From: Blasia pusilla
Lineage: Eukaryota
Direction: 5' to 3'
Length of the DNA: 64,000 bases
Assembly: GCA_050084515.1 (NCBI GenBank)
Contig: CM114271.1
Location: 28,706,001 to 28,770,000 of the forward strand
In this document: in pieces, positions 939 to 64,000 of the stretch
How positions within the stretch are numbered: the first letter of the stretch is position 1
Layout of the letters: the number at the start of each line of letters is the position of its first letter
Program-made: the position numbers and the translations under genes
Notes under the pieces: generated by a model
Database searches by the model: none
Seen by the model: only the letters and a program-made list of their open reading frames with translations
What the model was told of the DNA's origin: nothing

Positions 939-2287
939 GGGGGCTGGTAATTTAGCAGGAGAGAGTAAGAGAGGAGAGGAAGAGAGGAGAGTCTCTGTTA
1001 AAAAAAGGGCACAATCCGCCTCCTCTCTTCAAAACTTTTTGACATTTTTGAAATTTTTGTTTGCTTTCAAATTGATGAAATCTTTAGAAGAGAGTAGCAA
1101 GTGGACCACATTCGGGCCTAAAGTAACCTTCTTTTTCCAGGCTGGGAAAAACAAGTAGACATCATAAGACCACTACAAACATTCTTCCATCACTCTCCAT
1201 GTGAACCCAATTTTCTTCACATTGCGTGTCTAAGCCAGCTCTATAGTAAGTCGGGCTGAGGGGTATTATTGTTGGAGGACCGTCGGCATATAATATGACC
1301 AGAAGTAGCAATTTCATCTCAATGAAAGGTTCAAATAAAGACTCTAACTATGGTCTCAATAGACTCCTGTGCCCTTTAAGGTTTAACTTCTCTGAAGATG
1401 TGGTTGACATTATGGATTGTTGACTCTTCTTGCAAAAGGCATTAAATATCCCATCCGATCAATACTCATCCATGAGGGGGTTTTCCACAACAAAACAAAT
1501 CACTCATCACTGATGGTAGCCGAAGACTTTCATGACAACATTGGATGATATTGGCTCATGAATGGATGCATAAATTATACCATGGAGTGCTATGCATTTG
1601 ACAACTTGGTTTCACCATTCTCTCAGCCACTGAGAAATATATGCATCAAGAAGAAAATGTGATGAGATTGAGAGGATAATCGCGTCAAAAGGTTGATAGC
1701 TGTCAGGAGGAAAGAGGAACTGATGCACCCATGTCCCTTCATTCATACCCTAAATGTCAGAATCCGACAGGTTGCACCCCTTCCAACCCGTCGAAATCCG
1801 ATGGGTTGCACCCCTTGCAAGCAAACACACCACAACAAAAGAAGGATCTTGAGAAGTGATTCCATTCCATCCTGCAACCCATGAGAATCCGACTGGTTGG
1901 GAATTTGACATGAGAATCCGACAGGTAGTAGGAATCCAACACGTCTATGAAATACCGTGTTAGAGAAGAATGGTGTGACGATAATGGGGGAACGAGGCAA
2001 AAGTGAAGAAGCCTGCCAAAATACGAGAGCCTGAAAAGTTGGACTAACAAGAAAAGAGTGGAATCACTCAAGTAGCCAACCTGTCGGAATCTGACAAGTT
2101 GCCTGCAAGGGGTTTAAATTATTGTGACAAGATGCAACCCGTCGGAATCTGACGGGTTGCAAAATAAACAGCCTCGAGTAGATAGACCAACGCAATCGAC
2201 AAGAACGAAAAACAATTCAGCAAAAGTTTACAAAAACCATCATGGTTCAAAACCTTCGTGTCCTTTATTACATCCGAGGGAAGCTCA

Positions 2288-3520
2288 CAAATTGCCATTG
2301 TGTCAGGCGCCTCTAATACTCGCCCCTGATAGGCCCACTAAGTCAAAGACCAAGTCACCCGGCCTGGAATAGAGCTCGATGAGCGTTTGCATCAAGGCAG
2401 GTGACTTTTCCCTTCCTCCAAGTAAGGGGTTCACGTCTTGCATGTAAATTCCCAAGGGGGACTTGTAGAGACTATCTAAGTTGTACCCATCGGAGCATGT
2501 ATCCACTGGATCCGGGATACGAAACACCTGGAAGTTGTGCTTGGGCCTTACAAAGTAGTGGACAAATGAGTGGTCCATGTGTAAACAAGGAGGTAAAAAA
2601 TAACGTCAGCAAAAAGAAAAAGCTAATAGACTGCTGGTCTACTCTCCATAAACTGAAACAATGTGCAAACCGTCAGGATCCGACGGGTTGCTTTTCAACC
2701 CGTCGTACTAGTCCATAGTAATTACCAACTTGTCCGAACTTGGCCTATAGGCCTGACAGAACAGCGACCAGTCGGAGTCCGACGGGTTGTCTTACAACTC
2801 TAAGACCCTTTTTTGGCCATGAGCAATCCTTCGAAAGCCGATAGGTTACTCATCTTGCTAGACAGAAGCTCCACTGTTTAGAGTGCGATGGTTGGCTTAC
2901 AACTAAATACAATTGTTAAGAGTTGAGAAGTTCCTAATATAAGAGCAACCCGTCGCTTTTAGACGGGTTGTATCACTCCAAAAACATGGGGAAAAGCAGT
3001 GCTATTTGCAACCCGTAGGGTTGCAGTCAATGGGGACTTGTTGGTGAATTTGCAACCCGTCATTTTCAGACGGATTGCAACACCACAGACACAAGCTATT
3101 GGGATTCGACGGGTGGCATGCATATATGGAACCCGTCGGAGCCCGATGGGTTGAATTTTTGTTAAACTCAATTCGTTGAATAAGAGAACTTACCCGGACT
3201 TGACTTGTCGCCGATCGAAGTGGATACTCATTTTTTATTACCCATGATTGCGTCGTCCTCCACTTCAACGACCTCTTCACGCATTGAAGGTTGAAGAGCT
3301 TGTCTTTGCTCCCTCTAGTGAGGACCAAGAAACAACCCCTGTCACTCTGATACGTGTCAGCAAAAGAAAACCACAGTGCGATTTGGTCGTATGAAAGCGA
3401 GACATTACAGTCTCGGACAGTATCAGACGGATTGTTGTCCCACAAGCAAAACCCAGAAGGCAAATCCGCAATGAGGAGGTCCACCGCCACTTCCTCAACC
3501 ACCCCATGCACCGTCTAGCT
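2288..3520 (-). pseudogene. Second copy of the last two exons of the N4/N6 DNA-methyltransferase-like gene
   Basis: VDLLIADLPSG (motif IV position)...SATSQVR|gtaag, intron 3193-2528, cag|VFRI...REKSPALMQTLIELYSRPGDLVFDLVGLSGAS. Same splice sites as the 5019-9754 copy. Premature TGA. Confidence 0.75.
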
Positions 3521-3672
3521 CGAGATAGCCATCTATCCCTACCTACCATGATATACATCTCTTGGACGCTAAGAGCAAGAAGGCCGAGTGCTCATGTGGC
3601 CCCATTGTTAGTGGCCTTCTTGTCATCCATGTCACGGACACAAGTCAAAATGTAGAACTACCTACTCTATGA

Positions 3673-4860
3673 TCATCTGGGATACATCCATCGTCCCTGA
3701 GGAACCCTAGTGAGTGGTGGCGTCAAACATGCCATATGCCATCCTCTTGAACACCTATCATAGACTACCATAGTGGCTGCACCACGGGCGGAACCACACA
3801 ACATACACCGCAAGCCTGCAGAAACTATTGCTAAGCTCGGATTAATTATACTGTCAATGTTTGGAAGATGACATGGCGCAGAGTTACGCACATGGTCCTT
3901 CCAAACCATACCATCGCGTCCCTCCAATAAGAGAACACTGGATGGCAAAACCTCACGCACTCTCAAGATGGTGCGCCTTGCAGTCACATCCAACATCGTG
4001 GATGCCGTCTACTATAAGTAGACATAGTCTCCTTGATGAAACCTCCGGATATTAGGTTGATAACAACCTCCTCGAATAGTCGCATACCTCAATATATCCC
4101 GATGTTGCGCAATCGCCAAGTTCTCAAATGCCATGGAGATCACTATCCAAAAGAACTCAATCCTCAGAGAACATGCTCGCATCCATACATCAGGGTCATC
4201 AAGGTTCAACACCTCACCAACATCTGGACGAATGGTGGCTGGTAAATCTGGCTCTCGACCATAAAGCAACAAGAACGGTGAGAAAGACGCTAAGGATGCC
4301 TCCATGCTAAATCTGTATCCCATCTCCAACCATGGAAACTAAAGGTCCCAATCCCCTATGTGACCCCTCTACAAGCCATACTTGTGTAGTCATCTCTTCA
4401 TTGTCTGCACAACCCGCTCCGCTAGTCCATCCGCCTCAAGATGATCTCGCGAAGTAGTGCGGCGGTCGATCAGTGCCTGATCACACAAGGCTTAAAACTC
4501 CCCGCGGAACTCTATACCTTGGTATGTCAACAACTTAGCTGGTACGCCATAATGACTCAACACTTGATCTAGGGAGGCATACACTACTCCCTCACGTGCT
4601 TTGTCAAGCAATGCAACCAACTCTATCCACTTCGAGAAGTGCTCGACCATGACCAATACATAACAACTATGGCGCTCCGTCAAAAGAAAAGGTCCTGCAA
4701 AATCCAAACTCCATCTACAATCTAAACCCATGATCCGAAGTGGATGCAACTGTGGAGTCGGAGCATTGAACGATGCTCAGACTTGATCACACACCATGCA
4801 TGTGGCAACAAATTGCTGAACGTCAGTCTGCATGCCTCGCCCTCAATATTGAATCTTGAG
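3673..4860 (-). mobile_element. Ty3/gypsy integrase core plus C-terminal PHD finger (fragment)
   Basis: WSLDFAGP...VMVEHFSKWIELVAL...YGVPAKLLTYQGIEF; C-terminal CMLCGS...DRCSRGWHMACLTPPLTRVPQGRW (PHD). Stops and frameshifts. Confidence 0.85.
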
Positions 4861-5018
4861 AACTCCATCATCGTTCGAAAAAATCTTGTCCTTAATTACA
4901 TCCGAAGGAAACTCGGAACTGTACATTTGATCTATTCTATGAATTCTTTTGCCTCGTCATCAAATAAATCCCTACTCCAAAATGCTGCACTCGAGCTAGG
5001 TCTTTGAGTTCTTTGAAC

Positions 5019-8000
5019 TCACTTGTCATCGTCCGAGAGCTCTTCCAGAATTACTATCGGCCTTGCCCTGCCAATTTTTGGAATCGTGGGAAGTGACGAT
5101 GGTGTCACTACCAATGGTGGGCTTGGAACCGGAGCTCTCGGCTTCGGAGGAGAGTTGTACGCCCCAACTAGCGTGTCGTAATCTGCCTTTGCCTCTTTGC
5201 AAAGGTCAAACAGTTCTTGCCTTCCCTCAAGGCAGAGAATGTTCTTGCCCCTCTGCCAGGCGCCTCTGATACTCGCCCCTGAAAGTCCCACTAAGTCGAA
5301 CACCAAGTCACCCGGCCTTGAGCAGAGCTTGATGAGCGTTTGCAACAACGCTAGCGACTTTTCCCTTCCTCCAAGTAAGGGGGTACCATTTTGCATGTAA
5401 ATTCCATGGGGGGAATTGTTTAAACTATCTAAGCTGTACCCATCAGAGCATGGATCCACAGGATCCTGGATCTTAAACACCTGGAAGTTGTGCTGGGGCC
5501 GAACAAAGCAGTAAACATAGGAGTGGTCCATGTGTAAAGAAACAGGTTGGAAAAAATGTCAGCAACAAGAAAGAGCTAATTTCAGTATGCAACAACAAGA
5601 AAGGTATACTATCATAATGGTGACATAATGTGCAACTCGTTCCCAAAGAACTTCGCTTAACCCCAAAGAACTTAGTTATAGTCCTAACATTGGAGCAACC
5701 TGTCGGAGTCCGACGGGTTGTTTTACAAGTGTTAGTGATTTTTTTTGCCATGAGCAACCCGTTGGAAGGCGACATGTTGCTGGCTTAGAGCATCCCATGG
5801 TTGGCTAAGAGCAACCCGTCACATTCAGACAGGTTGCATCATTCCAGAAACACAAGGAAAAGCATAAGCACTTGCAACCCGTCGAGTTCCGATGGGTTGT
5901 ATTCATCTAATGGAGACTTGCGGTAAATTTGCAACCCGTCGCTTTCAGACGGATTGCACCACCGAAGTCTCTAGCTCAGACAATCTGACGGATTGCATGC
6001 AAAGATGCAACCCGTCGGAGCAAGATAATTTGGATATGGATTTAGAGCCCTTACCCGGATTTGACTCGTCGCGGATCGGAGTGGGTACTCGTTCTTGATG
6101 ATCCACGATTGCGCCGTCCTCCACTTCAACGACTTCTTGACGCACTGCAGGTTGAAGAGCTTGTCCTCGCTCCTTCCAGTTAAGACCAAGAAATAGCCCT
6201 TGTCACTGGGATAAGCGTCTGCAAAGGAAAACAGGAGCGCGATCTGGTCATAAGAAAGAGGGACATTCAAGTCTGGGACACCATAGGACGGATTCTCGTC
6301 CCAAAAGCGCAACCGTGAGGAAAAATCAGCGACAAGGAGATCCACCGCCACTTCCTCAACTTCCCTATGGACCGTCCAAGGAGCATGCCCATGTCGTTGA
6401 AGCTTCCAGCGTTGTCAATTTGTCGATGGCGGGTGTCGACGCTTAGGAACTGAAACTTTGCAGCTCATCCAGAAGATTCGTGCAGTGAATGATGGCGCTT
6501 GTTCGGGTCATTGTTTCTCTATGTCTTCCCAAGGATGATGGAGTGTATTCCACATACACTCGAGGGCTTGCTCCTCCGCATCTCCTTCGAAAAAGTCTTC
6601 AGGCTGCACCAAATTGGGGATGTCGTCCTTACCTGGAGCCACAGCATCATAGAGCAGGCGTAGATTTTTCTCGGTTATGTCCTCAGGGTCGTTGAAGTCC
6701 AGCCAGATGGGACAATTCTCCATCTCCCAGTCGGACATGCTTTGAGCCATCTCCATGTCGTACATGGAAAATGTCTCTCCATCAGGCGGAGAAGCCCACA
6801 ATTTGCAGGCGGCCGGTATTTTTTGCCACGTACCTGCATTCTTACAATGGACAAGGTACCTGAACACCATGCGTTGGGCAATTCTTAGTCTAGATGTATC
6901 GGCCGCCTGCTCCTAAAGATCTCGCTTTTTCTTTGCAAAATCCCTTTTCTTCACCTCTATTTCTTCATCAAGGTCCGCCTGAGGGAGGATGTGATCCTTG
7001 AACATCGTCCAGAAGCCTGGGTTTTTTATGGGCTCGTCCCAGATGTCATCCTGCCAAAATTTAAAATCTTCAGCACTCTCCAGGTTTTCTTCCTCCGGAA
7101 CAGGCTCTATTTTTTTCAGCTCCGCTTGAAGATCCACAAGCATGGACTTCCCGAGAAGCTGCAACGCGTCCCAAAATGACCATTCACGGAGCCAGTGGGA
7201 GATCACTGGATCAGAGACACCCGGAGGATGGTGTGCCGCCCTCTTTTGGGCCTCTGTGCCCTCGAGATTGATTTTCATCAATCGGATTCTCCTAAATTCC
7301 AAAATTCCAGACAAGGCAAATCGATGGACGCGGTCGAGAGACACTTTCTCCCCAATCCGACCATGCAGATCTTCATCCCTCTTCCGCTCGCGCTTGATTA
7401 TCGCCTTCAGCTCCTTGTAGAAATTGGGGCCAAGTTTTGGGTCGAGAATGGTGATGTAGTGTTGCATCTTTCTTGGAGTGTACTTCGTAGCTGTAGATAC
7501 TGCAACTTGGATGAACTTAGTACGCTCAGACAGAGACACTTTCTCCCTCCGCTCTAGCTCCAATGAAGCGCTCTTCTTGGCGGCCTGTATCTTCGACCAG
7601 CAAAGGATTGTCACGGCTGCATCTTGGGAAATAAATGTATTTGCCCAAGTCTTTTTTTTTTATTTGAGCCCCCTCCGCCAGCATCTCATTTACAAGGGCG
7701 TCGCCCAAGAACCCCTTGTACTCTATCGGGTGCGTCGTTACCACTTTCTTCACCCGATCGTAATCCTGGATCCAGTGGTGGGTGACATTCCCCTCGGATA
7801 CAATCCTGCACATCCAAACTCAATATAAGAAATTTTGCAAGCTACATGGGTTCCTGCAACCCGTCAGACTCTGACATGTCGTCACAACTCATGGTCGGAA
7901 TGGTAGCTACGAGCTAAATTTTGCAACGCATTGGAGTCCGACGGATTGCATTCAGATTTGTGATTGCCTGGTTTCAACCCGTCAGACTCTAACGGGTTGT

Positions 8001-9754
8001 AAGAGAATTTGTATTTAGAGAGGTCTCCGCGAGAAAAGTGAACATATCAACCCGTCGGAGTCCGACAAGTTGCACAATTTCAAGTAAAGCTGCAATTTGA
8101 CGCCAAAAATCAAGCTCCCCTACTCCGATCACCTTCCCGTGCCGACGAATGCAACCCGTCAGAGTCTGACGAGTTGCTTTCGACCAAAAACATCCTAAAA
8201 AAAGTGGCCAGTCGAGCAACTCGTCGGACTCCGACGAGTTGCTTTCGGCCAAAAACATCCTAAAAATAGCGGCCAGTCTAGCAACTCGTCGGACTCCGAC
8301 GAGTTGCTTTTGGCCAAAAACATCCTAAAAACAGCTGTCAGTCAAGCAAATTGTCGGACTCTGAGAAGTTGCTTTCGGCCAAAAATATCCTAAAAACAAC
8401 GGCCAGTCAAGCAACTGGTCGGACTTTGACGAGTTGCTTTAAGGCACCCGATGTTTTGTTACCACTAGTTAAACAACTCGTCGGAGTCCGACGGTTTGCA
8501 ACAATCAAAATAAAGGAAGAGGAAACTTACGTGTTCATGGCATGCATGGCCATCTCCACCGTGGCCATGTGATGAGGGTATGGATGTAGCACGACTGCCT
8601 TCACGCGGAAATGCGCCTCCAATGAGTTTTGGCGCTCCTCTGCAAACTGGGTCCACGCCATGAACCTGTGGTTTCCATCCCAGATGAAGAAATACAGGTT
8701 CCGCATCCAACTAAATTCCGTCCCCTCAATCGCCCTTCTGAATTCCTGATCTCTCATCCTCCAGAATGTGTCGAGCGCTTCCAAGTCCTCCTCCGTCACC
8801 AACGCTTGGGTTCCATGTTCATTGTAAGGCTGAACATAGAACGGAGGAAAGCTGTCAACATAGGATGTTGTCGCTGCCGATTGTTTCAGCTTTGCAATAT
8901 CCTCGTTAGACTGAATTTCGCGGTCGTACTCCATTGTCCGCAATCCGCAAAGTGGAATTCTTGGGGCGTTCTGGCCGTCCATCAGTGCCATCTGCTTTAC
9001 CACCTGTCACAACGGGGACAAGGTCAATAAACTTCACTAAATTGCCAATGAATTGCAACATGGGCCTTCACATAACTCAAAGAACAAAGATTGTATCTTA
9101 CTTGCTCGAAGATTGGGTCGGTGTCTTGGCCCGCCAACTTCTCTAGGAGAGCAGCTGGAAAGTCCACTGGAAACTCGTCGATCCGATAGAGGTCTATTTC
9201 TTCCACCAGGCTAAGAGACGAGGAAGATTGCTCTCCTTCTTCTTAAGAGATGTCCACCATCTCCACGCTGGCGGTCCTCATGACCTGATCGTCCATCACT
9301 TAAACTTCGTACGTTTCCTCAGCCGATTTTATATTGATTGTGTCCCCACTTTTCATCGGAGATATTTCCTACATCTCAATACTTTTGGTTGGACGGGCTG
9401 GGCTTTCTTCAATGGCAATCACTTTTTCCCTTCGAGCTTTTTCCAATTCTGCTCTTCTCACCGACGCGTCCATACGTTTCTTTTCACGCTTCTCCTTGGT
9501 AATCCTTTTCTTCAAGGTCGCGATGCCTCAGCCTTTGCATTCTGTTTTTCAAGCGCCTCCTTAACACGTTTTGCAAGAAGCTCTTGCCTGTGCATCTCCA
9601 CTTCCCTTTTGCGCTCCTCGATCTCTTGCTGCCTTATCTCATTGGCCGAACGAGGCCCTAGAGATGGTGACGCAGGAAACCTAGACTTGGGAGTGAAGTT
9701 CCTAGCCTTGCTTGCTTGAGTTTTTTTCCTTGTCATTGTTCCCGAAAATGCCAC
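5019..9754 (-). pseudogene. Spliced ParB/Srx-like + beta-class N4C/N6A DNA methyltransferase-like gene (transposon cargo)
   Basis: Phase-compatible GT-AG introns 9101-9004, 8530-7806 and 6054-5481. FFIWDGNHRFMAW (8665-8679). VDLLVADFSS at about 6320. REKSLALLQTLIKLCSRPGDLVFDLVGLSGAS...GKNILCLE (about 5220-5370), matching beta-class order IV...X-I-II. Start position uncertain; several stops and frameshifts. Confidence 0.75.
8151..8440. repeat. Tandem repeat, 65-bp period, about 4.5 units, each starting with the palindrome
   Basis: Units start at 8151, 8216, 8281, 8346 and 8411 (gcaactcgtcggactccgacgagttgc...aaaaacatcctaaaa). Lies inside intron 7806-8530. Confidence 0.9.
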
Positions 9755-10025
9755 CTCCTCGACAACGAAATTACTTTCTATGCACGATGAGTCGCTCAGA
9801 TGAGTCTCCTCGATGAGTCACCTTGATGAGACGCCGTGTAAAGCGCCCCTTGGTATCTGGTCCGCTGCTGCGTTGAAGAGCAATCGAGATCACGAAACAA
9901 AAAACCTAAAATGAGCAAACCCTAGCCTATTTATACTTTTCGAGCCGTTGGGCTGACCGTTGGGTTGCACCATTGTTCCGACGGTGACGTGTCGGCCATT
10001 ATGGAGGTGTGGACGTGAAAACCAC

Positions 10026-10375
10026 CAACCTGACGATCTCCGACGGGTTGGAGGCATCCGTCCTAGCCGAGCTATCCTGGCAACCCGTCGGAGTCCGACA
10101 GGTTGCGCGCCTCCACCATTTTGGGGGAAGAATGCAAGGTACCCGCCCAACCCGTCGAAGACCGACGGGTTGCACCCTTCCCTCGTCTTGGGATAACAAG
10201 GCGGGGTAACTGCGCAACTCATCGGAGGCCAACGGGTTGTACGCTTCCTTCATGTAAGCATTATAAGGCGAGGCACTTGCGCAACCCGTCGGAGGCCGAA
10301 GGGCTGCACGCTTCCCTCATCTTGGGGTTATAGGCGAGATACCTGAGCAACTCGTCGCTTACAGACAGGTTGCAC
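10026..10375. repeat. Palindrome array (about 67-bp period) between the divergent MTase and transposase genes
   Basis: CAACCCGTCGGANNCCGACGGGTTG variants at about 10027, 10081, 10148, 10215, 10282 and 10348. The intervening sequences resemble each other. Confidence 0.85.
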
Positions 10376-10895
10376 TCATTTCTATCCCTTGGGTAACAAT
10401 GCGACAACGGATAGTTCCGAGGCAACCTCTTGCAATCCGACGGGTCTGAAGGTCTACCCTGAGTTGGACAATCCCGTAACAGTCCCCAGCGATTAGTTAC
10501 CTTAGCAAATGCAAGCGATGTCTCATGTTTGATGCTAGCAAAATCGTCTCAAAAGACCATTGGTCGGCATGAAGGGGGTACCAACCCAACGAACTTCGAC
10601 GTCTTCCAATTTGCATTGGGACACGGAAACAAAAAATGGAACTAAGTGCTTCGCAACCCACGTCTCTGATTCCCAAATTTTGCAACCCATCGGACTCCGA
10701 CAGGTTGCAACAGAATTGAATCCATCATGTCAAACAATCTCACCTACCAAACTTCATCTTGTCAGTCAAATTATGTTAAGAGAATCTGAGTCCCTATTCA
10801 CTATAAATTGAACATTCTCATTCTCATTCTCATTCCCATACCTATTCTTATCCTCATTCTTATTCTCTGTCTCCTTCCAGAGGAATCTTCTGGGA

Positions 10896-13800
10896 ATGGA
10901 TAATTATGTGAAGCTCACTTGTGGCAGTCATCTAGCGGCCCTTTCTCAATGAGAAATCGTTCGACCGCAAGCTCATGAGTCTTTCATAGCAGTGGATGAA
11001 AATTTTCTCTCCGTTCGATGTCTTCTCCAAATTGGAACCATCTTTGTGTCCAAGGATGTTAGGGTGGACGGTACAAAGGACATAATAGGTGAGACAATCC
11101 AGCCAATGATTGCAGACCGTAAAGTATGGAATCTCCTACCTATAGCAAATGGTCAATATAGAGTTTACGGCTTGCCTCTGAATTCCTATGTTTCCCAAGT
11201 AGACGGTCGAGAATTTCCTAGTGCACCGAGCTCTACGTTTGCAACTCCTAGCTCAGTAGATCCCGCATCGACTCCAACTTCATCTGTTCGTTACAATGTT
11301 GTACTTCCTGAAGAAATTCCCGATGTTGTCAACCTTAGTGGATTTTTCGGACACCAACCGGGCCCTCTGTCCGCCTACTTGTTCCTCTTACGAATATCAG
11401 GAAATAGTTTGCTATCTTCTATGGCCTTGAAAATGTTCAAGCACATTCTTGTTGACGAGCTGCCGCCCACGTATGATGGTAATTGTATTTTTGAGTTGCC
11501 TCCACTTGCTGCTCCTGCTCAAAAGAAAGATGGAGGAGGCTTGAAGGGTATGGACAGAAAGTCTGATTGTCATCGATGGTGCACGCTTCAACGGACTAGT
11601 GCTTCAATTTCAGATGGTCCTTGGATTGTCTCCCGCCGCCAATGCATTGGAGCCTTGGAGTGTAGAAGTCCAGCATGCCCATATCTAGAGCGCAACGAGC
11701 GGGTCAATACGTTGCAATTCCCCCCCAAGAATGCAAAAACTCCATATGAGGTCGGTGTCACCATACCATCGGGAGGCCATCGATGTCCTCATTGTCAAGC
11801 ATCCCCTTTCTGCGTTGGAGCGTGTCCTGCATACATATTTTTCACTGTCCACGACTTGGGCTCCACGTCAGAGTACACAAGGCTGGCAGTTCATGTTGGC
11901 TCCCACACTCATCCTGTGATCGATGCAATTCAGAGACACATCAAGGAGGATGTGGCGAAGAAAGTGGCCGAGGTCTACAGAAACTCTTCAGGTTCAAAGC
12001 CCGGAGTGATCAAGCTCACAACAACATCACAAATTTATGAACAATTGCTTGGAATCCCTGGACAGGGTGAGATCACGGCTGTTGAGGAGAAACAACTCTG
12101 GGAAAATCTCGCATTTCTCCCTGATCTTGAATGCTTCCGGAATTTTCGACGTCAAATTCGTGTACTGGATGGAAAGACGGCCGAAATGGATGCCATTGCT
12201 AGAATAAAGGCCAACTCCAGATTTCCATTCATTGAGAGATGGCAGTTCATGGGCTAGGGAGGCGAAGGATCCAGGGCCTATATCTTCAAAATATCAACGA
12301 CAGGTCCGTCGAGTGGCCTCGATCTTATAGATCGAATGTGAGAAGGGGAAGATCTTTACGGCAACTGGGTAAGCTTTGATATTTGCTACAGAGTGTTGAA
12401 CGGATGGTTGACGATGGATGCTCACGTTTATGACCATTGCAGAAGGGACTCAAAACTATATTTGTCTGTGAAGTAAAAGCAGAAGACGTTGGCAGTTTGA
12501 AGATGTGCTGGTTACTCTTATTGGAGGTGGTGAAGGAAAACAAAAGGCCACCTCCATAAATTTACGGGTTCATGGCGGACAATGCACAAATTGGGTGGAT
12601 TGCTATTACGGAAGTGTTTTGGGATGGGGAGGTTCAACCGGAGAGAGAAAGGTCGGATGCTTTCCATTGGCAACAGTCTGTGACCCGGTACACCAAATCT
12701 TGCATCAAGGAGAATAAGAGGACGGGGCATGTCACTCTACTCCAACGCTGCAAGGACAACAAAACCTTGAAATAGGCCATGGAATGCCAAGAAGAAATTC
12801 ATGGGTGGTGGAGGAAACATGCGATTGAGGGGAAGTACAAAGAGTTATGCTCTTGGTTGAGTTGGTGGACTGGACAAGTGAGACAATGGGAAAACTTCAT
12901 GCGGGAGGTGAGTTCACTAGTTTGTCTCGCTGAAAATTGTTTGAAGAGTTGCAACTAAAGGTGAGAATCGTGGGCACTATAGGGATTTCAAACGAAGAAA
13001 CCAAGCAACTTGTCAGATGCAACAAGTTGCCTCCCTGAGTGTTCAACCTGTCGCTTACTAACAGGTTGCCTGAGTGTGCAACCAGTCGAAACCCGACGGG
13101 TTGCAAGTCGCATGACCAAATTTACTTGCAACCCGTTGGAATCAGACGGGTTGACGGGTTGCCTAAGAGTGCAACCAGTCGGAAAAGGACGGGTTGCAAG
13201 TCCCATGGCCAAATTTACTTGTAACCCGTCGAAATCCGACGGGTTGCACTAGGTGGTTCCTGGGTGTTGCAACACGTGAGAAACCAACGGGTTACAGATT
13301 CATTCATGGGATGCCTCTGACTTGCAACCCGTCTGGTTTCGACAGGTAGCTTTTTTCTTTGCTTATAAAGCTATTTTGGTTCCCTTCTTCCAGTGCCGTT
13401 GTTGCAGGGATTGAACATTCATGAAAATGCCCTCTGCCCCAACACAAGTGAAAGTGTTCATTCCTCCTGGAGGTTGTCACAAGCATGCCAAAGAATTTCA
13501 CTTGTGGAGGCATGCCAACAAGACCACGCAAGAGCAATGCTACAGTCTGCAGCATCCCATATCTTCCTCACAAAAGGTATAACAAAAGGAAGGGGGCCTT
13601 CGATCTATGAGCTCTATGTCAAGGAAACTATGAGATTGGGTGATGAGAAACTCTATGTAGAAGCCTTCAATCGGTGCGTAGTAGGAACTCCCCTCGAGCA
13701 AGAAGTACACATTGGTGGGGATATTCCTGGGCGCGTTTCAAGACGTCCCATACATATGGTGGAAGAGTTGTCCGAGCGAGACTCGTGGAGACCAGATAAG

Positions 13801-14901
13801 TATCAAACTTCAGGTAGGTGAAGAGGCAACATCGAGGAACGAATCCGGTGATTGATTTGTATGAGGAAATTACGCCGCCCAGGTATTCGAGCACCTTGAA
13901 CTGCTCCCAAATCCATGATGGAGTAACTTCTCCAAAATCAGTGAATTTTTTATTTCAAAGCCCTCCGTTGCTGGAAGTTCGCAACATCCGGTCGATGGGT
14001 TGGTTCAACAATATGGGATTCTGGTCATGGAGGTGGATTGCAACCTAAAACGGTGGCATATATCTCGGAGCAACCCTGGACGTGGACCCACTTGTAGGGC
14101 AAGATCTTATGGCATTAGGAGAGCATGCGGCACTTTCCTAAATAAGAACTGTACAAGGACTAGACGACCACTGCCTGGGTTTTGGGGACTCAAAACCTTT
14201 GATCGTTTCATGAGGACCGGGATCAATTGAAGTACTTCTTCTTCCCAAATGAATCTTGCGCTTTCCGTAAGTCTTATCCGGCTGCCATTGGAGCTCCGGG
14301 GAATACCCCCACGATTTGGCCCATTGCCGCAGGTACGTATTGCACTCAAGACGAAGTGGACAATCTTACAAGTGCCGATTTCAGACTCATAGACGGAGGA
14401 AGTTGAGAGCATGTTTGCATTACAAAGATCTTCGCATTTCGTATTTAACTCAAGATTGACGTCAACATGTACTCGGAGAAGGTGGATGATCTCAATCCAC
14501 TATTTCTGTTTGAGTCTGGAAATGGGGTGAAGAGAAACAGAATGTGTATGCCAACGGTGGAGAGAGCAAAGCGAATTGCATCAACTCGAGAGGCAAAAAT
14601 GGAGATCATCGCCACAAAAGATGTCCACATTGGCAATGGAATAGGAAGGATGTATTGGGTCACGAACAACACTGTAAATTCAAGTGTCATAGGGGTGTAT
14701 GTGGTGCACATCTGTTGCTTTCCCACATGTTCATGTGATGACTTTGTCCAAAGAGAGACAAGTGGCAAAAGGTATTTCCCTTGTAAGCACATGTACTATG
14801 TGTTGCTTGTAGTTTTAAGAAGGTCAGAGGTAGGAGTAGGAATCCACCAACCAATTCTGTCCCTCAAAGAAGTGCAAAGTATTTTAAACAAACCACTTTA
14901 A
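10896..14901 (+). pseudogene. Mutator-like DDE transposase with N-terminal Cys/His (GCM/WRKY-like) region and C-terminal SWIM zinc finger
   Basis: Putative D at 12378 (VSFD), D at 12578 (FMADNA), AFHW at 12662, E at 13450 (NTSESVH). SWIM CSCDDF...PCKH (14727-14790). Phase-0 intron 12908-13407 (FMRE|GLNI). Multiple TAG/TGA stops and frameshifts. Confidence 0.8.
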
Positions 14902-15649
14902 GGATGCAAAATGAGGTTTTAGACTATACTTTCATTTTTCCAAAACCTTCACTTTGAGCTTGAACTCTATTAAGCGTAGGGCAAATGATAGATTTTTTCC
15001 AGACCTTGGATGGAAAAAGTGATTGGTTCCACACTTATGATTCCACTGATTTTTCAATTTTCTAAATTTTGTGCAATTTGCAACTTGTCGGACTCAGAGG
15101 GGTTGCCAAAATGTGGAAGAGGAAAAAAAACTGTGGGAGTGCTTAAGAATTGAGCAGAAAAGTGCAATAAAATTCACACAAAAATTTTCCTCTCTTCAAC
15201 CCAACGGAAACTCTCTTCAAATCACAGGAAACTCTCTCCAAAAAAAAGTATCTCTTTCGGTTGAAGGTAGTTTCCTCTCTCCTCTCTCCTTTCTTCCTTT
15301 CTTCCTCTCCTCTTACCGCACCTCGCTCGGTGCGGGCCTTGGATGCAGGCTTAGGGTGGGCCTTGAGCCCACACCTGCCTACATGGATCCCGCAACAGCC
15401 TGTTGAGAGCCCATGCCTAACCAACCCTGAGCCCGCGCCTACACGCCCTAGCCTGCACCCAAGGCTCACAAGGCGGGCTTTAGGCTTGCACCAAGCCCAC
15501 CTTGGCTGGGTTGCGGGCCACGCAACGGGTGCTAGCTATGGGTGGGCTCGGGTGCGGACTGGGATGCGGACTCGGGTGCGGGTCTCGGGTACCTGGACTC
15601 GGACCCGCACGAACATGGACATGACCGCGGACACGGAATTTTTCTGTGT

Positions 15650-24200: not shown

Positions 24201-24574
24201 TTCTTCTTTCGATGAAAGTCCATGGATTCCCAATCACCCGAGTCCTCATTGGTGAGACCATTGAACCGAACGAGCAGTAGTGTTCCGGACCGTGGTTGGG
24301 CAAATTCTTGTGGGTCGGCGATCGAATGCAATTGTTCACCATAATACAAATGTAATCCAGGAAGATTTCAGGAAAGTATGTGTGGAGTGCAATTCGTCAT
24401 AGTTGCACGAATCCGGGGGTCCCTGGAACAGATGCGAAGCAGTCGGTGAGACTTGTGAATTAAAATAAAGGGTTGATTGGGTCGTGGATTAGATTCGCAG
24501 GCAGAGAGAGACGGGATTCGTTAAATAGCGTCTGCCGGAGCCTTGCGATCATAGACCTCGCGACCTGATTTAGC

Positions 24575-24620
<46 letters not shown>
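24575..24620. repeat. (TG)n(AG)n microsatellite upstream of the DUF2045 gene
   Basis: Directly visible. Confidence 0.95.
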
Positions 24621-24623
<3 letters not shown>

Positions 24624-24787
24624 TTAATAGAAGAAGATATTTCTGTGCGAGGGACAGCGTTGTTGGGGAACTCTGAGTTGAAGAGGAATAGGTGGTGGCT
24701 GCTTTTGTTAATCGTTTGAAGATTAGCAAGTCACACTGCTCCTTGTTCCGCTGTTAAGGTCTTTGAAGAATCCGTCTTTCAGAATTG

Positions 24788-56183: not shown

Positions 56184-57615
56184 CACACTTTCTTTCAAGG
56201 GAAGGATTTTTGGCCGTCCAAGTTTCGGGCGAGTTGGCAAAGTGGCGTAGCAATCATAACCCAAGTTTACCTTGATGCTTACGGAGATGTTTTAGGGTAA
56301 TTTTTGGGTGACACGCATTATTGTTAGTGCATTGGTGAGTGCACAACACTATCGGGACTATTGTAGAGAACCTGATGGAATGGATGTTTACCACACTAGT
56401 TGGGAGTGACTTAGTGTGCGGGCTACTTGCCGAGTGTTGATCTCAAGTGAGATAAGTGGGGGAAAAATTTGGGCATTGTCTAGTGCAAAGCTAGTGGCTC
56501 ATGAGTGAGTCATACTCGTTTGGAGGTTTCGGGTGCTCCCATAGAGGAGGCGCGGCAAAAGGAGAGGAAGAGAGGAGAGAAGAAACTTCCTTCAATCCAA
56601 AGATAAATTTTTTTTTAGAGAGTTTCGTGTGATTTGAAGCGAGCTTCCCTTGGGTTGAAGATAGGAAGTTTTTTTTTAAACATATTTTTCAATTTTGTTC
56701 TATGTGCTTAGTCACTTCCTCAAATTGGTTTTTCCTCTTCCTCATTCTGGCAACCCGTCTGAATCTGACGGGTTGCAACTTGCACAGAATTAAACAAACT
56801 GAAAAATCATTGGAACCAGAATTGTGGAAAAAAATCACTTTGTCCATCCAAGGTCTGAATAAGATTCATCATTTTTCCTTTGCTGATTAGAGTTCAAGCT
56901 CATAGTGAACATTCTGGCACTTCAAAGTACAATCTAAGACCTCATGTTGCATCCTTATAGTGGTTTGTTCAGGATACTTTGCACTTCTTTGAGAGAAAAA
57001 ATTTGATGGTGGATTCCTAATCCTACCTTCGACTCTCTTAAAACTACAAGCAACACATAGTAGATGTGCTTACAAGGAAAATACCTTTTCCCACTTGTCT
57101 CTCTTTGGACAAATTCATTACAAGAACATGTGGGAAAGGAACAGATGTGTACCACATACACCCCTGTGACACTTGAATTCACAGTGTTATTCCTGACCCA
57201 ATACATCCTTCCTAATCCATTGCCATTATAAATATCTTTTGTGGCGATGATTTCCATGTTGGCCTCTCAAGCTGATGCGATTCGCTTTGCTCTCTCCACC
57301 GTTGGCCTACACAATCTGTTTCTCTTCACCTCATTTCTTGACTCAAACAGAAATAGTGGATTGAGATCATCCACCTTCTCTGGATACATGTTGGCAACAA
57401 TCTAAGTTTGCATCCAAAATGCGAAGGTCTCTGTAATGCGAACATGTTTCGAACTCCCTCCATCTACGAGTTTGAATCCAACACTTGTAAGATTGTCCAA
57501 TTGTAAGTCCAATTGGTACCAGCAGCAATGGGCCAAATCGTGGGGGAATTCCCTAGAGCTCCAATGGTAGCCGGATAAGACTTTCGGAAAGCGCATGATT
57601 CATTTGGGCAGAATC

Positions 57616-59505
57616 AATTGGTAATTGGTAAATAGATCAAGCCCGTGGGACGCAAAGGGTCAAAAGGCTGAAAAACACATTACAAGTCATTCATTCACTG
57701 ACCCTGAAAAAGATCCTAAAGACCTTCTCCTAGCTACTGCCTAGAGCACTTGAGCAATGAATAATGACGTCCCTAATATAACAACCTAAATCATAAGGCA
57801 CTAGCTGTAGTAAAGAATAGAAATTCTCCACATCTATTTTATGAGCTAGTCTAATCTCTTCATACCTTGGACATGTAACAAACACATGCTCTTCATCCTC
57901 AATATTTTCTCCGTCACATAACCTACAAATTCGTTCACTTCTATCAATATTAAACCATCGTCCTTCCTCAATTCCTAGCCTATGAGACCTAGTTCTATGT
58001 CGTGCGATAATATGACATAAGAATGTGGAGATCCCCGCAAGTAGGTATCCTTGTTCACAATATACAAGCATAAGATTAACATGAAGTTGATAAAACTCCA
58101 TTTTTGTGCGTGGGCTGCTCCAAATAATGTTGAGAAATTGCTTTTGTAGATGCTCGCGGAGTGCCATCGGTTTCAAGTCCCAATCGCATTCCTCCACATT
58201 CCGCTTTGAAGACCAAGTCACCACATCTGCCATCCACCCTATAAAATGTGTGGCTCGCAAAGCTTGATGAGGGAGGCAAGAAACATCAAGAGATCTCACC
58301 CTTGGGATATAAGTGATGATCAAGTAAAAAGCTTCAGCCTCTAGAGGAAGACAACCTGTTTCTACAAGAAGAATAGCATAAGGAGTTTGGTTTCTTATAC
58401 CTAATTCTTCTTGTAGAAAGATCTTTTGCACCCTCTCCACGCGCTCCCAACCTGTCTTCTCACAACAAAGGCCCCAAACTTGGGTCCCATATAAAACCAC
58501 CGGCAACACTAAGCTCTTAAATAAGAACTTCCTAAGACCCCAAGACACAAGATGAGCTCTTCTACACCGATTTAAAAATGAATATAGAGCTTTGTTACCA
58601 ACTTCTACTCTCTTTTGCACGCAAAGTGCCCAACTATAGTGATGAGAGAAATCGATGCCTAGATATTTGTAACTCTTCACTTGTTCTAATTGTAGACCTT
58701 TGTAAAAGAACGAGAACTTGGATCTAGTACCCACTATAATGACTTTAGACTCCTCCATATTAACCTCCATCTGATTCTGGGTACAAAACCTTGCCAAAGT
58801 GTCGAGGTGTATTTTTAAACTAATGCCATCACGTGCTAGTAAGATGATATCATTTGCATACAATAGAGCTTTGATGACAAAGTCCCCAAGCTTGACACCT
58901 TCACTATCACATTCTTCCAACCACTTTTTGATATCATCTATGAAAACTCTAAATAGAGTAGGGGAGAGAGGACAACCTTGAATGACTCCTATGGTACTCA
59001 AATTCTCTTGAGTTTGTAATCTTTGATCTTGGCCCGAACGGAATGGTATAACGTGACCACAGCTGCTAGGAGATTTGGTGGAACTCCAATGGCTTAGAGC
59101 CTATCCCATAAGAGCTTATAAGATACAGTATCAAAAGCTTTCTTGAGATCGATGAAACCGCAAAACAAAGCTTTCCCATTGTCCTTAGATTTCTCTCATA
59201 AAACACGCAAGGCCAAGATATGGTCAATGGTTTTGTATGTTGGGCTAAAACCAGCTTGGACCCGTGCTCTCTTTTGGAAAGACTCTGTCCATGTGCTCAA
59301 CTTTGACTCCACCAATCTCCCAAACACCTTGGCAAAAATACTACCCACCATGATAGTACGATAGTTTGTCACCAAGTCCTTCCTTCCTGATTTGTGAATA
59401 GAAACAATCTCCTGTAGCGACCAGGTTGAAGGAAAACCATAAATAGCAGCATCACCCAATACTTTGGTGAGGATCGGTCCAATACAATCTCCTCCCCACT
59501 TGAAA
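57616..59505 (-). mobile_element. RTEX-like LINE copy D, 5'-truncated, inserted into the transposase
   Basis: 423-aa RT/CCHC ORF 57730-59001; GGTAA(A/T)T tail. TCAATTG occurs at both junctions; the empty site is at 63745-63777. Confidence 0.9.
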
Positions 59506-60738
59506 ATACTTCAATTGATCCTTGGTCCTGGTTAAACGATCAATTTTTCAGCCCCTAGAAGCCTTGTACTGGTCGTCCAATCCTTATACAGTTCTTATTC
59601 AAGAAAGTGCCGCATGCTCTCCTTATGCCTTGGATCGTGCCCCGCAGGTGGGTCCACATCTAGGATTGCTTCAAGAAATATGCTACCTCTTCATATTGCA
59701 ATTTTCCACAATGACCAGAATCCCATATTATTCAATAGTCCTTGAGACTGGATGTAGCAAAGTCCTAGCTAAGAATAAGACATTCACTGATTTTGGAGAA
59801 GTTACTTCAACTCAAATTTGGGAGTAATCTTGTGTCTCCGAATATCTAGGCAAGGTAATTTCATCATCCAAATCAATCACCGGGTTTGTTCCTCGGTGGT
59901 GACGTCAAGATACCTATATGGTCTCCAAGAGTCTCGCTCAGATTGCTCTACCACCATCTATATGGGACGTCTCGAAACACGCTCACGAATGTCCCCACCA
60001 ATGTGGACATCTTTCTCGAGAGGAGTTCCGGCTATGTACCGATTGAAGGCTTCCACATACAATTTGTCACATCTTATTTCGACTTAGATAGAGTTCTATC
60101 ACGTCGACGACATAGAGAGGCAGCCGGTTGTTTGGATGTAACTTCATCCCGAGATTTCGGATGAGGTTGGCGACAAGTCTGCTGTGTTGGAAACCTCAAT
60201 TATGGCGATTTTCCTATTTTGGTTTTAGTGCGGCAGGTGAGCCGTTGACCGAGTGAACGGGTCACCCGGTAACCTTGCATGCAGATTACTGTTGGGAGGG
60301 CTATTTTTGGGGGAAGAGCCAAACCATCTTTCTCATGTTGAGCCTTAGGAGCGTCTCTCTTGCATAGACGTGTGTGGGTATGTAAGAGTTAGGGTGCTAG
60401 CGTCCGGATTCCCTCACAATAGCCCTAACATAGAGCTCGTAAATCGAAGGGCCCTTTCCTTTGGTTATGCCTTTTGTGAGGAAGATGTGGGATGCTGCAG
60501 ATTGTATCATTGCCCTTGCTTGATCTTTTGGTATGCCTCCACGAGTGAAATTTTTTGGCATCTTGTGATGACCTCCTGGAGGAATGAACACTCTCGGCTC
60601 CACTTGTGTTTGGGCAGAGGGCATTTTCATGAATATTCAATCCCTACGGAGACAAAAATATGAGAAGGGAATGGAAAAAGCTCTTTGGGTGAAGAAAATT
60701 GGTAAATGGTAAATAGATCAAGCCTGTGGGACCCTACT

Positions 60739-61912
60739 TGCAACTTCTCGGAACCCGACGGGTTGGAAGTAGGAGGCATCCTAGGAATGTCTATGTGCAA
60801 CCCGTCCCATTCTAATGGGTTGCAACACCCAAGAACCTCCTACTGCAACCCGTCAAAATCGGGCGGGTTGCAAGTAGGAGGCCAATGTGTCCTAGAAAAT
60901 CCATGTGCAACCCGTCGGATTCTAACGGGTTGCATAACACAGGAGCCTCCTATTGCAGTTGGACCAAATCCGACGGGTTGCAAGTAGGAGGAAATTTTTC
61001 CCTGCAATTTGTGTGTGCAACTCGTTGTAGTCTGATGGGTTGGAAGAAAAAAATTCCCCAAATTTCGGACTTTCAACCCGTCAGATTGTGAAAGGCTGCA
61101 AGAAGTGTCAACAAGGCAAAACTTGCAACCTGTCAGAATCCGATGGGTTGCAGACAAGTGCAACTTGCAACTAGTTGGAATCCGACAGTTTGCTGACTGA
61201 GTAAACTTGCACACTTGGAACTTGCAACCCGACGGGATCATATGGGTTGTAGACAGATGCACCTTGCAACCCGTCGGAAACCGACGATTTGCAGACTTAG
61301 TATACTTGCACACTTGGAACTTGCAAACCGTCGGGATCCGACGGGTTGCAGACTGATGCTCTCCTTTTCAGCCCTTTATGATTTCTTGATGGGATTCAAC
61401 CGGTCGGATTATGATAAGTTGCATGTCCAAATTGACTATTGTGAATTTTTGGGATCCTTCCCTCTATAACTTTTTTCGTACCTAGGTTATGTCATGCGTT
61501 AAAACTCTGTTGAACAAGATAAGTCTGCATAGTACTTTAATCCTTATGAATCCTAATCCTATCATGCAACCTCTCAAAATCCAACATGTTACAAGTCCGG
61601 ATTATTGGCTGGTTGCAAGTCCGGATGATTTCTTGTTATTGCAACCTGTCGGTTTCCGATGGGTTGCTTGTCTGCAGGCAGCATGTGGATGTCTTCTTCT
61701 GAGCCCTTTCAACCTTTCGGTTTCCGACAAGTTGCACGTACCGAGTACTCACTTATGTGAATTTCAGATTTAAAATTTTGCGAACCTACCAAGGTTATGT
61801 CACGATTAACAACAATTTTGAAACATGAAATGTCTAGATAATTTGTTCTTTTATTGTTTCCAAGTCCGGGTGATTGACAATAGTCGCAACCTGTCGATTT
61901 CCGACAGGTTGC
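60739..61912. repeat. Dense cluster of TGCAACCCGTCGGANTCCGACGGGTTGCA palindromes
   Basis: Copies at about 60739, 60796, 60844, 60906, 61222, 61265, 61322, 61640 and 61886, among others. Confidence 0.9.
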
Positions 61913-62645
61913 TCAAACGAGAAGCCACCAACTCATAAGAGAAAAGGTCTACAATTTTCCCCCAGGATTTTTCATGGATTTGTGCTTCGAGGGAGAGAAA
62001 AGTCCCCGGCATTGAGAAAGACTCTTATGAAGCTCTGCTCGAGAATCATTAACTTAATCCTAGATCTGGTGAGGGTTTCAAGGTCGAGTGTTAGAGCCGT
62101 TTGGTAGAGTGGAAGAAACATTCTTCCACTCGAGGGGAAGAGGAGGCAACTATTTGCACTTTGCGAAGAGACGCCAACTCATATGAGTTGGCGACCTATG
62201 CCAATTTCGGCAAGTATGTTGCCACAAATCATCTTTACTTTTACTTTGCCGATCATTTTTCATCTTCCCTGTTTTGCCCTACAATACTGAAATTCCACCT
62301 AAAAATTTGCTGATGATGGGGGGTTGGTCTCTCTTGCACTTTCATGACTGATCATTGATGTTTTTATTTCCATCTTCACATCTTGGTTTGAAAGAATGTG
62401 GTGCACTTTTTACTCTCTTTAAAAGCTTTCTTGCATTTGAAGTAGGGGTTAAACCTTAAAAAGTGATGAAAGTTTTGAAGTGAGTTTAAGGATTTGGCAA
62501 AAAAAATTTGAAGAGAGACTTTCCTCTCTCCCTCTCTTACTCTCCTCTCTTACTCTCTCCTGCCAGAATACCAGACCCCAGAGCTTTGCAACCTGTGAAA
62601 TTCTGATGGGTTGGAGAGAGATTTGTTTTTTTGAGCCTTGTTTGC

Positions 62646-64000
62646 GAGGCGCGATAAGAGGAGAGCAAGAGAGTAAGAGCGGAGAGAGGAAGAGAGGAAA
62701 GAGGAAACTACCTTCAACCCAAAGAGATATTTTTTTTAAGAGAGTTTCCTGTGATTTGGAGAGAATTTCCGTTGGGTTGAAGAGAGGAAACTTTTTGTGT
62801 GAATTTTTTTGCACTTTTCTTCTTAGTAAATGGTAAGTGGTAAATGGTGCTTAGGCACTCCCACAAATTTTTTTTTCCTCTTCCATATTTTGGCAACCTG
62901 TCTCAATCCGACGGGTTGCAACTTGCACAAAATTTTAAAACCTGAAAAATCATTGGAATCATAAATGTGGAACAAATCACTTTTTCCATCCAAGATCTGG
63001 AAAAATTCTATCATTTTCCCTTGGCTGAATAGAGTTCAAGCTCAAAGTGAAGGTTCTCGCAAATGAAAGTGCAATCTAAGACCTCATTTTGCATCCTCAA
63101 AGTGGTTTGTTTAAAATACTTCGCACTTTTTTTAGGGACAGAATTGGTTGGTGGATTCCTACTTCTACCTCTGACTCTCTTAAAACTACAAGCAACACAT
63201 AGTACATGTGCTTACATGGGAAATACCTTTCCCCACTTGTCTCTCTTTGGACAAAGTCATCACATGAACATGTGAGAAAGCAACAGATGTGCACCACATA
63301 CACCCCTTTGACACTTGAATTTACAATGTTGTTCCTGACCCAATACATCCTTCCTATTCCATTGCCACTCTAAATGTCTTTTGTGGCTATGATTTCCATG
63401 TTTTCCTCCCGAGCTGATGCGATTCGCTTTGCTCTCTCCACCGTTGGCCTATACATTATGTTTCTTTTCACCTCATTTCTAGACTCAAACAAAAATAGTG
63501 GATTGAGATCATCCACCTTCTTCGGGTACATGTTGACATCAATCTTGGTGAATCCAAAATCCAAAGGTCTCTGTAATGCGAACATGCTCCGAACTGCCTT
63601 CGTCTATGAGTCTGAAACCGGCACTTGTAAGATTGTCCACTTCGTCCTAAGTGCAATTCGTACCTGCAGCAATGGGCCAAATCGTGGGGATATTCCCTGG
63701 AGCTCCAATGGCATCCGGATAAGACTTTTGGATTGCGCAGGATTTATTTGGGCAGAAGAAGTACTTCAATTGATCCTCGGTCCTAGTGAAACGGTCAAAG
63801 GTTTTGAGCCCCTAGAAGCCAGACAATTATCGTCCAGTCCTTGTACAGTTCCTATTTAGGAAAGTGCCGCATGCTCTCCTAATGCCATCAGATCCTCCCT
63901 TGCAAGTGGATCCACGTCCAGGGTTGCTTCGAGATATATGCCACCTTTTGAGGTTGCAATCCACCTCAATTATCGGAATCCCATACTGTTAAACTACCCC
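62646..64000 (-). mobile_element. Third Mutator-like copy: right end and SWIM/transposase 3' part, running off the window
   Basis: GAGGCGCG terminus at 62646; SWIM ORF 63097-63348; colinear with 14005-15324. Confidence 0.85.

Follow-up and report, generated by a model that had tools for sequence, protein, structure and literature searches.

The 64,000-nucleotide stretch of the Blasia pusilla genome analysed here (assembly GCA_050084515.1, contig CM114271.1, forward-strand positions 28,706,001 to 28,770,000; hereafter the window) carries a copy of a large DNA transposon that harbours many copies of a 29-bp palindrome. The full unit of this family, defined from ten copies picked by paired protein matches, is ~12.3 kb long and has two annotated genes. 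It consists of a left end, a four-exon minus-strand gene, a shared promoter of about 1.2 kb, a two-exon plus-strand gene, and a right end. The minus-strand gene encodes a protein with a ParB-like domain and a methyltransferase-like domain (ParB-methyltransferase, ParB-MTase), and the plus-strand gene encodes a putative transposase. The window copy is dead. Stops and frameshifts break both genes, including exon 1 of the transposase gene and exon 3 of the ParB-MTase gene, which also lacks about 285 bp near 6555. In addition, the 3' part of the ParB-MTase gene is duplicated, and a gypsy-type fragment is inserted (Table 1). Both ends of the element are short, asymmetric, and purine-rich, with no long terminal inverted repeat (TIR); their common part is GTAAGAG..GGAGAGGAAGAG. 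The terminal 27-mer of the left end has 472 exact copies in the genome. Target duplications of 9-10 bp are present in four of the seven full copies with both ends inspected. The first-look candidates for the two genes number 2888 and 3816 genome-wide, which are not copy numbers.

The palindrome has the consensus TGCAACCCGTCGGA-N-TCCGACGGGTTGCA, with 14-bp arms and a 1-bp centre. A preliminary description of this locus had counted 45-50 copies by eye, filling the introns, the divergent promoter, and the subtermini. Scanning returned 45 non-overlapping palindromes between 1748 and 15107 with at most 10 mismatches in 28 positions, and 40 with at most 8. The chance level from 50 shuffles was a mean of 0.56 sites at the looser threshold and zero at the stricter one. 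A half-site scan of the window gave 71 matches against 0.25 expected. The distribution seen by eye is borne out region by region, and all four introns proposed to hold palindromes have GT...AG ends, as judged from the sequence. At up to 10 mismatches, no palindrome was found in any exon of the window element, in intron 1 (98 bp, 9004-9101), or in the gypsy fragment inside the element. The scan also found none in the host genes of the window, in agreement with the impression by eye. The palindromes are carried by different tandem units; those of 65 and 67 bp had already been noticed, and units of about 50/93 bp are added here. No palindrome in the window element is perfect, and the best one, at 2133, has one mismatch. 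Elsewhere in the window there are 21 further palindromes (one at 18030, and 20 at 56749 and 60739-62920), all in fragments of the same family. A lone match with nine mismatches at 50715 is at chance level.

Table 1. Features of the window element and of related copies (positions are those of the window unless a locus is named; palindromes with at most 10 mismatches)
Feature	Location	Strand	Description
Left end	939..1000	+	GGGGGCTGGTA... then GAGAGGAA-type purine repeats; homology to other copies stops sharply
Left subterminal cluster	1748..2161	.	5 palindromes
Partial second copy of ParB-MTase gene, 3' part	2241..3540	-
Intron within partial second copy	2528-3193		GT..AG ends; 7 palindromes
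Gypsy-type fragment inside element	3541..4860	-	Integrase, PHD finger (Pfam rve + PHD)
ParB-MTase exon 4	5019..5480	-	C-terminal half of beta-class N6/N4 methyltransferase domain; motif I reads DLVGLSG
ParB-MTase intron 3	5481..6054	-	GT..AG ends; 6 palindromes
ParB-MTase exon 3	6055..7805	-	Helical domain (candidate ParB-type DNA-binding), linker, N-terminal methyltransferase half
ParB-MTase intron 2	7806..8530	-	GT..AG ends; 10 palindromes, part as 65-bp tandem array 8151-8440
ParB-MTase exon 2	8531..9003	-	ParB/Srx-like domain, WDGNHR (GxxR) motif
ParB-MTase exon 1	9102..9736	-	Low-complexity N-terminus
Divergent intergenic region	10024..10709	.	9 palindromes, part as 67-bp tandem array 10068-10357
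Transposase exon 1	10896..12907	+	N-terminal region rich in Cys/His (GCM/WRKY-like, by eye), putative D..D..DxxH core
Transposase intron	12908..13407	+	GT..AG ends; 7 palindromes
Transposase exon 2	13408..14901	+	Probable third catalytic residue (ES.H, by eye), putative C-terminal SWIM finger
Right subterminal palindrome	15079..15107	.	Single palindrome
Right end	15265..15324	+	Other-strand purine repeats, ending ...CTCTTACCGCACCTC
Reverse-oriented family fragments	56562..64000	-	20 palindromes (56749; 60739-61913; 62587; 62892)
Non-autonomous miniature family (343-708 bp)	L016:4900-5245; L088-L117; L129		Element ends and 1-4 near-perfect palindromes

The palindrome is specific to this family. 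The scanned genome (390 Mb, 26 contigs) contains 178 perfect copies, against none of a reversed-pattern control, and the consensus drawn from the imperfect copies of the window is confirmed in this way. Family exons are present in 18 of 20 loci centred on perfect sites. One of the two outliers (L016) is a 343-bp miniature element. The other (L017, 4679-5346) is a 670-bp fragment of a lineage-B intron 2 with 10 palindromes, located in another repeat by a Helitron-like Rep/helicase gene. Its insertion has no evident target duplication, and an empty site is found at L083. Such a fragment could let an unrelated element use the palindrome system. By comparison, 19 of 20 arbitrary 10-kb loci at round-number coordinates have neither site nor element, and the twentieth has the element with 17 sites. 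The enrichment inside the family that the preliminary description had expected is thereby found; the opposite result, a motif equally common outside the family, had been set beforehand as refuting and was not observed. An independent micro-repeat is rejected, since the sites track the family, are absent from the 19 element-free loci, and both outliers are explained. None of 1266 sites falls in an exon (218 kb of exon matches in 46 loci), and the majority sequence of nine copies holds 34 palindromes in fixed slots. A Riccia query for a more distant family with a different palindrome gave the same family in all 15 loci examined. The searched prokaryote genomes and metagenomes contain no exact match to the palindrome.

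The site is also kept in elements that have no genes. A search seeded with the 343-bp element gave 22 distinct loci, 17 of which have both ends within 343-708 bp and 1-4 sites each. Target duplications of 9-10 bp flank 16 of 18 miniature elements (these 17 and one from an unbiased sample). The majority sequence of the miniatures is 589 bp long, with 32% GC outside the sites and three sites with zero, zero, and two mismatches. Apart from its ends and sites, it has no resemblance to the autonomous element, and it contains no genes. Of 30 left ends sampled without bias, 24 have a site within 1.5 kb on the inside and 8 have one on the outside. The two short complete elements of this sample differ: one has two sites, and the other (L141, 181 bp) has none. 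Because sites are kept without genes, their retention in miniatures points to a role at the level of DNA.

Selection on the site is apparent when lineages are compared. At fourfold-degenerate sites of exon 2, at least three lineages have 0.24-0.45 identity (about 35-45 sites per pair), which is near saturation. The half-site majority is identical in 20 of 22 loci, and the other two have A for T at position 1; in this comparison, the scan threshold favours the consensus. Perfect palindromes occur in lineages B and C, and a lineage-B copy picked by protein search (L081) has 21 sites with a mean of 4.1 mismatches. An information profile was made from 882 instances, which are related and not independent, after 23 perfect anchors were dropped. 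Arm positions 2-14 carry 0.9-1.84 bits in this profile, the 20-bp flanks no more than 0.16, and the centre 0.01. The palindrome itself is what is conserved, as had been claimed, and its arms do not merely equal the flanks. Of 552 strong half-sites with a partner, 541 have a 1-bp spacer; 51 more have no partner. A fixed spacer around a free centre base is the pattern that a dimeric protein would leave on duplex DNA. Site spacings of 35-76 bp peak at the unit lengths of 54-57 and 64-67, with no clear helical phase. The palindrome is very probably a selected protein site on duplex DNA because it is family-specific, exon-free, unchanged across near-saturated lineages, fixed in its spacer, free of an RNA signature (see below), and kept in miniatures. 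The cis-site proposed in the preliminary description stands as far as the site is concerned, which is family-specific, non-coding, and conserved beyond its flanks; the ParB-MTase and the transposase, which it offered as binders, have the standing of candidates.

The ParB reading of the second gene is supported by indications that are individually weak and converge (ESM Atlas, position, and fold). In exon 2, the WDGNHR (GxxR) motif is conserved in the Riccia homologues, and ESM Atlas assigns 0.94 to a cluster with PF02195 (ParB_N) on 11% of its members. The exon also has a match to Pfam DUF1015 below the cut-off (E=0.005). Of ten homologues looked up among 30 matches, nine are Riccia proteins with about 30% identity, and the tenth is unnamed. 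A helical domain is located directly behind the GxxR domain, and the canonical ParB order is a GxxR domain followed by the DNA-binding domain (PMC12704722). Comparison of the Riccia helical domain with 48,161 chains placed four ParB-family DNA-binding domains in the top 50 (ParB-parS, KorB twice, and Spo0J). These are 6s6h (Z 5.1, root mean square deviation (rmsd) 6.5, 124 aligned), 8qa8 (Z 4.5, rmsd 3.9, 100 aligned), 1vz0 (Z 4.3, rmsd 2.8, 91 aligned), and 1r71 (Z 4.2, rmsd 4.0, 103 aligned). Two of the four were also recovered in a separate structure comparison, and ESM Atlas gave no match for the helical domain. The weight of the ParB reading would lie in the agreement of position and family, not in the Z-score. 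The nucleotide preference of a ParB-type domain is not readable from its sequence (PMC12704722). Word-index homologue searches for the element proteins found nothing. Elsewhere in the assembly, a small contig (L148, G000:C23:42397-45663) carries a phage-like parB among intron-less prokaryote-type open reading frames and is probably a contaminant.

The C-terminal part of the same protein belongs by similarity to the beta class of N6/N4 methyltransferases. It matches Pfam N6_N4_Mtase below the cut-off (E=0.0018), M.RsrI (E=0.003), and DNA methyltransferases of PHROG (E=2e-5), and motif IV precedes motif I, as in the beta class. The catalytic motif of this class is [DNS]-P-P-[YF], with an aromatic fourth residue. 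In the family, DLPSG is the commonest form of motif IV among 40 matches, and the general form D-[LM]-P-[STKI]-G, which covers Riccia as well, has no aromatic residue. The Riccia homologues read DMPSG, DLPTG, DLPKG, and DMPIG, also without it. Catalysis is doubtful because motif IV lacks the aromatic residue both in the family and in Riccia. The earlier label of a ParB-methyltransferase thus keeps its methyltransferase similarity, while the domain appears catalytically degenerate and base marking is doubtful. Pfam scans of the exons and of 30 homologues gave the methyltransferase and a weak DUF1015 only, and no VANC-type gene.

The transposase domain labels (GCM/WRKY-like, D..D..DxxH, and ES.H) are putative and were set by eye from known motifs. 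The motifs WVSFD, FMAD, and DAFH are conserved in 25-31 copies, and their assignment to D..D..DxxH was also made by eye. Pfam SWIM matches the protein below the cut-off (E=0.008), Pfam MULE does not match it, and word-index searches for transposase homologues returned nothing. Target site duplications of Mutator-like elements (MULEs) are 8-11 bp (PMC6446971). MULEs also have a DDE transposase, a zinc finger that is often a C-terminal SWIM, and long TIRs, which the non-TIR families lack. The element fits a non-TIR Mutator-like transposon because of its 9-10-bp target duplications, its non-TIR ends, the putative D..D..DxxH motifs, and the weak SWIM match. Other MULE families exist in addition to the palindrome family.

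The family is exposed to host methylation. Its copies have a 4-5-fold excess of transitions at CG and CHG; therefore, the host methylates them and a silencing pressure exists. With this pressure in mind, we propose that the palindrome is a double-stranded operator for a dimer of the ParB-family derivative encoded by the element. The element would multiply this operator by tandem duplication in its introns (four of five in the window), in the shared promoter, and in both subtermini. The protein could then load along the 12-kb element with gaps of no more than about 2.3 kb, and on any miniature that keeps a site, and would spread or remodel chromatin locally. Genes and ends would stay accessible in the face of CG/CHG methylation, as with VANC for VANDAL or VirB against H-NS. 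VirB counters silencing by loading onto DNA and sliding (PMC10770331). For the transposase, the purine-rich repeats at the extreme ends are the more likely sites. The ParB-like protein is probably the binder of the palindrome, and we lean towards the whole proposal of a ParB-family protein that acts on an operator in counter-silencing. The binder, its dimerisation, nucleotide-gated sliding, and the anti-silencing effect are what we infer.

Several observations weigh against this proposal. Pfam ParB_N does not match the family in the genome, and a profile comparison of its ParB-like protein with a phage-like ParB failed. The structural models are of two Riccia homologues, about 30% identical, and not of the window protein; in these models the helical domain is confident, and the N-domain that precedes it is poorly modelled. 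Foldseek found nothing for the helical-domain models, and chance matches to unrelated helical proteins can score as high as the Z of 4.2-5.1 obtained here. For a ParB dimer, 29 bp would be a long site. The palindrome is the same in all lineages of the genome, unlike the VANC motifs, which diverge between families. CG sites in palindromes have decayed almost like those in exons (0.061 vs 0.072, and 0.089 in adjacent flanks), and no lasting protection of inserted copies is seen. The search for miniature elements was itself seeded with the palindrome. Finally, L141 retains both ends and its target duplication but has no site; the site may not be strictly required, or L141 may be a deletion in place.

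The same operator could serve a different protein or a different function. The transposase, through its Cys/His-rich N-terminal domain, might bind the sites for autoregulation or transpososome assembly, as in Spm/TnpA or Mutator. MULE transposases do bear WRKY-GCM1 DNA-binding domains (PMC1702500), the AtMu1 transposase activates cognate copies (10.64898/2026.08.24.746577), MURA hypomethylates the TIRs of non-autonomous copies (PMC10398659), and gene-less miniatures keep the sites. However, most sites are kilobases away from the ends; in full elements, about 780 bp separate the left end from its nearest site, and 180-220 bp the right end. A purine-rich repeat, unlike the palindrome, is common to the two ends and is the natural transposase site, and the second gene with its ParB layout would be left without a target. 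We regard this alternative as unlikely. Alternatively, the ParB-like protein may bind the sites in a structural role, either bridging or compacting the dissimilar non-TIR ends or repressing the divergent promoter in the manner of KorB, which is a ParB-family repressor (PMC13768133). The short, asymmetric ends, the persistence of sites where there are no genes to activate, and the lack of a methylation shadow at the sites agree with such a role. It is nevertheless doubtful: about 30 sites deep in introns exceed the need of end pairing, L141 has both ends and its target duplication without a site, and the placement of the sites matches that of VANC targets (PMC5735166).

Still less probable is that the palindromes serve as RNA hairpins (in splicing or as small-RNA decoys), as DNA cruciforms, or as functionless products of sequence conversion. 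The consensus folds at -24 kcal/mol, and symmetric departures of the two arms exceed independence, with 368 against 222 expected among instances and 8 against 3.1 in the majority slots. However, positions 1, 7, and 8 of related tandem units account for almost all of this excess. In the majority slots, unpaired departures number 73 and symmetric pairs 8, and the transcribed strand has G-U and A-C mismatches in similar numbers (103 vs 94). A spacer of 1 nt is too short for a hairpin to close, and yet it has a fixed length. Saturated lineages keep the identity of the site and not symmetry alone, and there are further sites in miniatures and beyond the transcribed introns. An RNA hairpin as the main role, which the preliminary description had offered as an alternative, is rejected, since unpaired departures dominate and there is no G-U bias. 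A host transcription factor whose site is hoarded by the element as an enhancer is highly improbable: transposons are known to amplify host-factor sites, but all 19 element-free 10-kb loci are devoid of the site, as are the surroundings of the host genes of the window, and the site is long and strictly spaced.

The operator that we propose has its nearest precedent in VANDAL/VANC. Neither this precedent nor the miniatures had been part of the preliminary description. VANDALs are MULEs with degenerate ends (PMC10398659), and VANC targets lie in introns and in intergenic and terminal non-coding DNA and have grown by tandem repeats (PMC5735166). The present element is likewise Mutator-like, with degenerate ends, an extra gene, a family-specific motif, tandem growth, and exons free of sites. 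In contrast, the VANC motif is 9 bp long, non-palindromic, and in one orientation, whereas a strict 29-bp palindrome is used here, with one motif for all lineages. The extra gene here is ParB-like with a methyltransferase and has no VANC-type Pfam match. VANC binds its motif and causes loss of methylation in trans, an effect that is proposed for the palindrome element. The logic is thus known from VANDAL, and the parts are not those of VANC. To our knowledge, VANC is the only well-worked case of this kind; it is known from Brassicaceae alone, and how it works is unclear.

ParB/parS systems resemble the element in other respects. ParB proteins have an N-terminal CTPase fold with GxxR in Box II and a central helix-turn-helix DNA-binding domain; they bind CTP, form a sliding dimer clamp, and act with a ParA partner in segregation. 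Members of the family also control mobile elements through palindromic loading sites. In both systems, a GxxR-type N-domain is followed by a helical domain, which here is a candidate DNA-binding domain that aligns weakly with those of ParB, Spo0J, and KorB, and palindromes with a 1-bp centre are present in many copies on the protein's own mobile element. The KorB operator TTTAGC-S-GCTAAA is a 6-1-6 palindrome (PMC13768133). Unlike ParB/parS, the gene is eukaryotic and intron-containing, is about 30% identical to liverwort proteins alone, and has a large helical insertion and a C-terminal methyltransferase-like domain. The site is about twice as long, and nucleotide, dimer, and clamp are properties that we infer. 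Fusion of ParB with an N6_N4 methyltransferase is common in phages (PMC12704722). These fusions and eukaryotic beta-class enzymes share with the element protein a ParB-like domain and an N6/N4 methyltransferase in one chain (PMC12704722; PMC4738411), and its nearest methyltransferase matches are M.RsrI and phage families. It differs from the phage fusions in its altered motif I, its motif IV without an aromatic residue, the long helical domain between the two parts, and its carriage by a DNA transposon. MpDN4MT1 has the motif TSPPY, compared with D-[LM]-P-[STKI]-G here (10.1101/2021.02.12.428880). The accessible text of this preprint on N4-methylcytosine in Marchantia makes no mention of ParB. 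ParB-linked methyltransferases are described in algae, chytrids, and phages, and the main text, as far as available, names no such transposon of land plants (PMC4738411). Spm/TnpA and MuDR/MURA also place an element protein on reiterated cis motifs, including those of non-autonomous copies. Their motifs are subterminal or in TIRs and their proteins are transposase-derived, unlike here.

Our literature search, which covered main texts, found no description of the element and none of ParB-type site recognition for a eukaryotic transposon. The palindrome is the operator of a large Mutator-like family that has not been described before; it is real, under selection, and specific to this family, and there is a fair chance that it belongs to a eukaryotic ParB/parS-type system. 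The chemistry of loading and sliding is known for the ParB family. In a bolder version, which we put forward tentatively, the transposon took over prokaryotic ParB/parS-type loading, and a nucleotide-gated clamp spreads along the element from dozens of self-amplified 29-bp palindromes. It is equally tentative that the disarmed methyltransferase domain serves as a reader or shield, with the element held open in the face of host methylation and the miniatures licensed. If true, this would be a parS-like system on plant chromatin, a second independent origin of VANC-like anti-silencing, and probably shared across liverworts. How the copies of a large transposon family are marked as self and withstand silencing is a long-standing question, to which the element brings a defined site and a defined candidate protein. 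The compact 29-bp operator and its protein could, in addition, be used for orthogonal targeting in plants.

Further features were seen around these elements. A pyrimidine-rich, acceptor-like ctccttccag at 10871-10880 precedes the transposase ATG by 16 bp and points to a 5' untranslated region intron that would take in some of the intergenic palindromes. Family copies often insert into or beside each other, and parts of another copy are present in several of ten 20-kb pieces. In the window, an inverted left end at about 620 (456-620) is flanked by the 9-mer GCTCGGTGC. The same 9-mer follows the right end at 15324 (15325-15333), and the left end at 939 is without it. This arrangement may be a sign of an inversion or an alternative transposition event. 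The host genes of the window, at 24500-33500 and 52000-54900, are a multi-exon DUF2045 gene and a gene with a ubiquitin-like domain. On the minus strand at about 38200-45500 lies a gypsy-type long terminal repeat retroelement whose pol includes a C5 cytosine methyltransferase domain, with a protease-like region on one side and the reverse transcriptase on the other; the match to Pfam DNA_methylase exceeds the cut-off (E=1.2e-6). Fragments related to this retroelement, at 1-438 and 3541-4860, carry an integrase and a PHD finger. Capture of C5 methyltransferases by retroelements is reported in dinoflagellates and charophytes (PMC5890265), and the present case is in a land plant.

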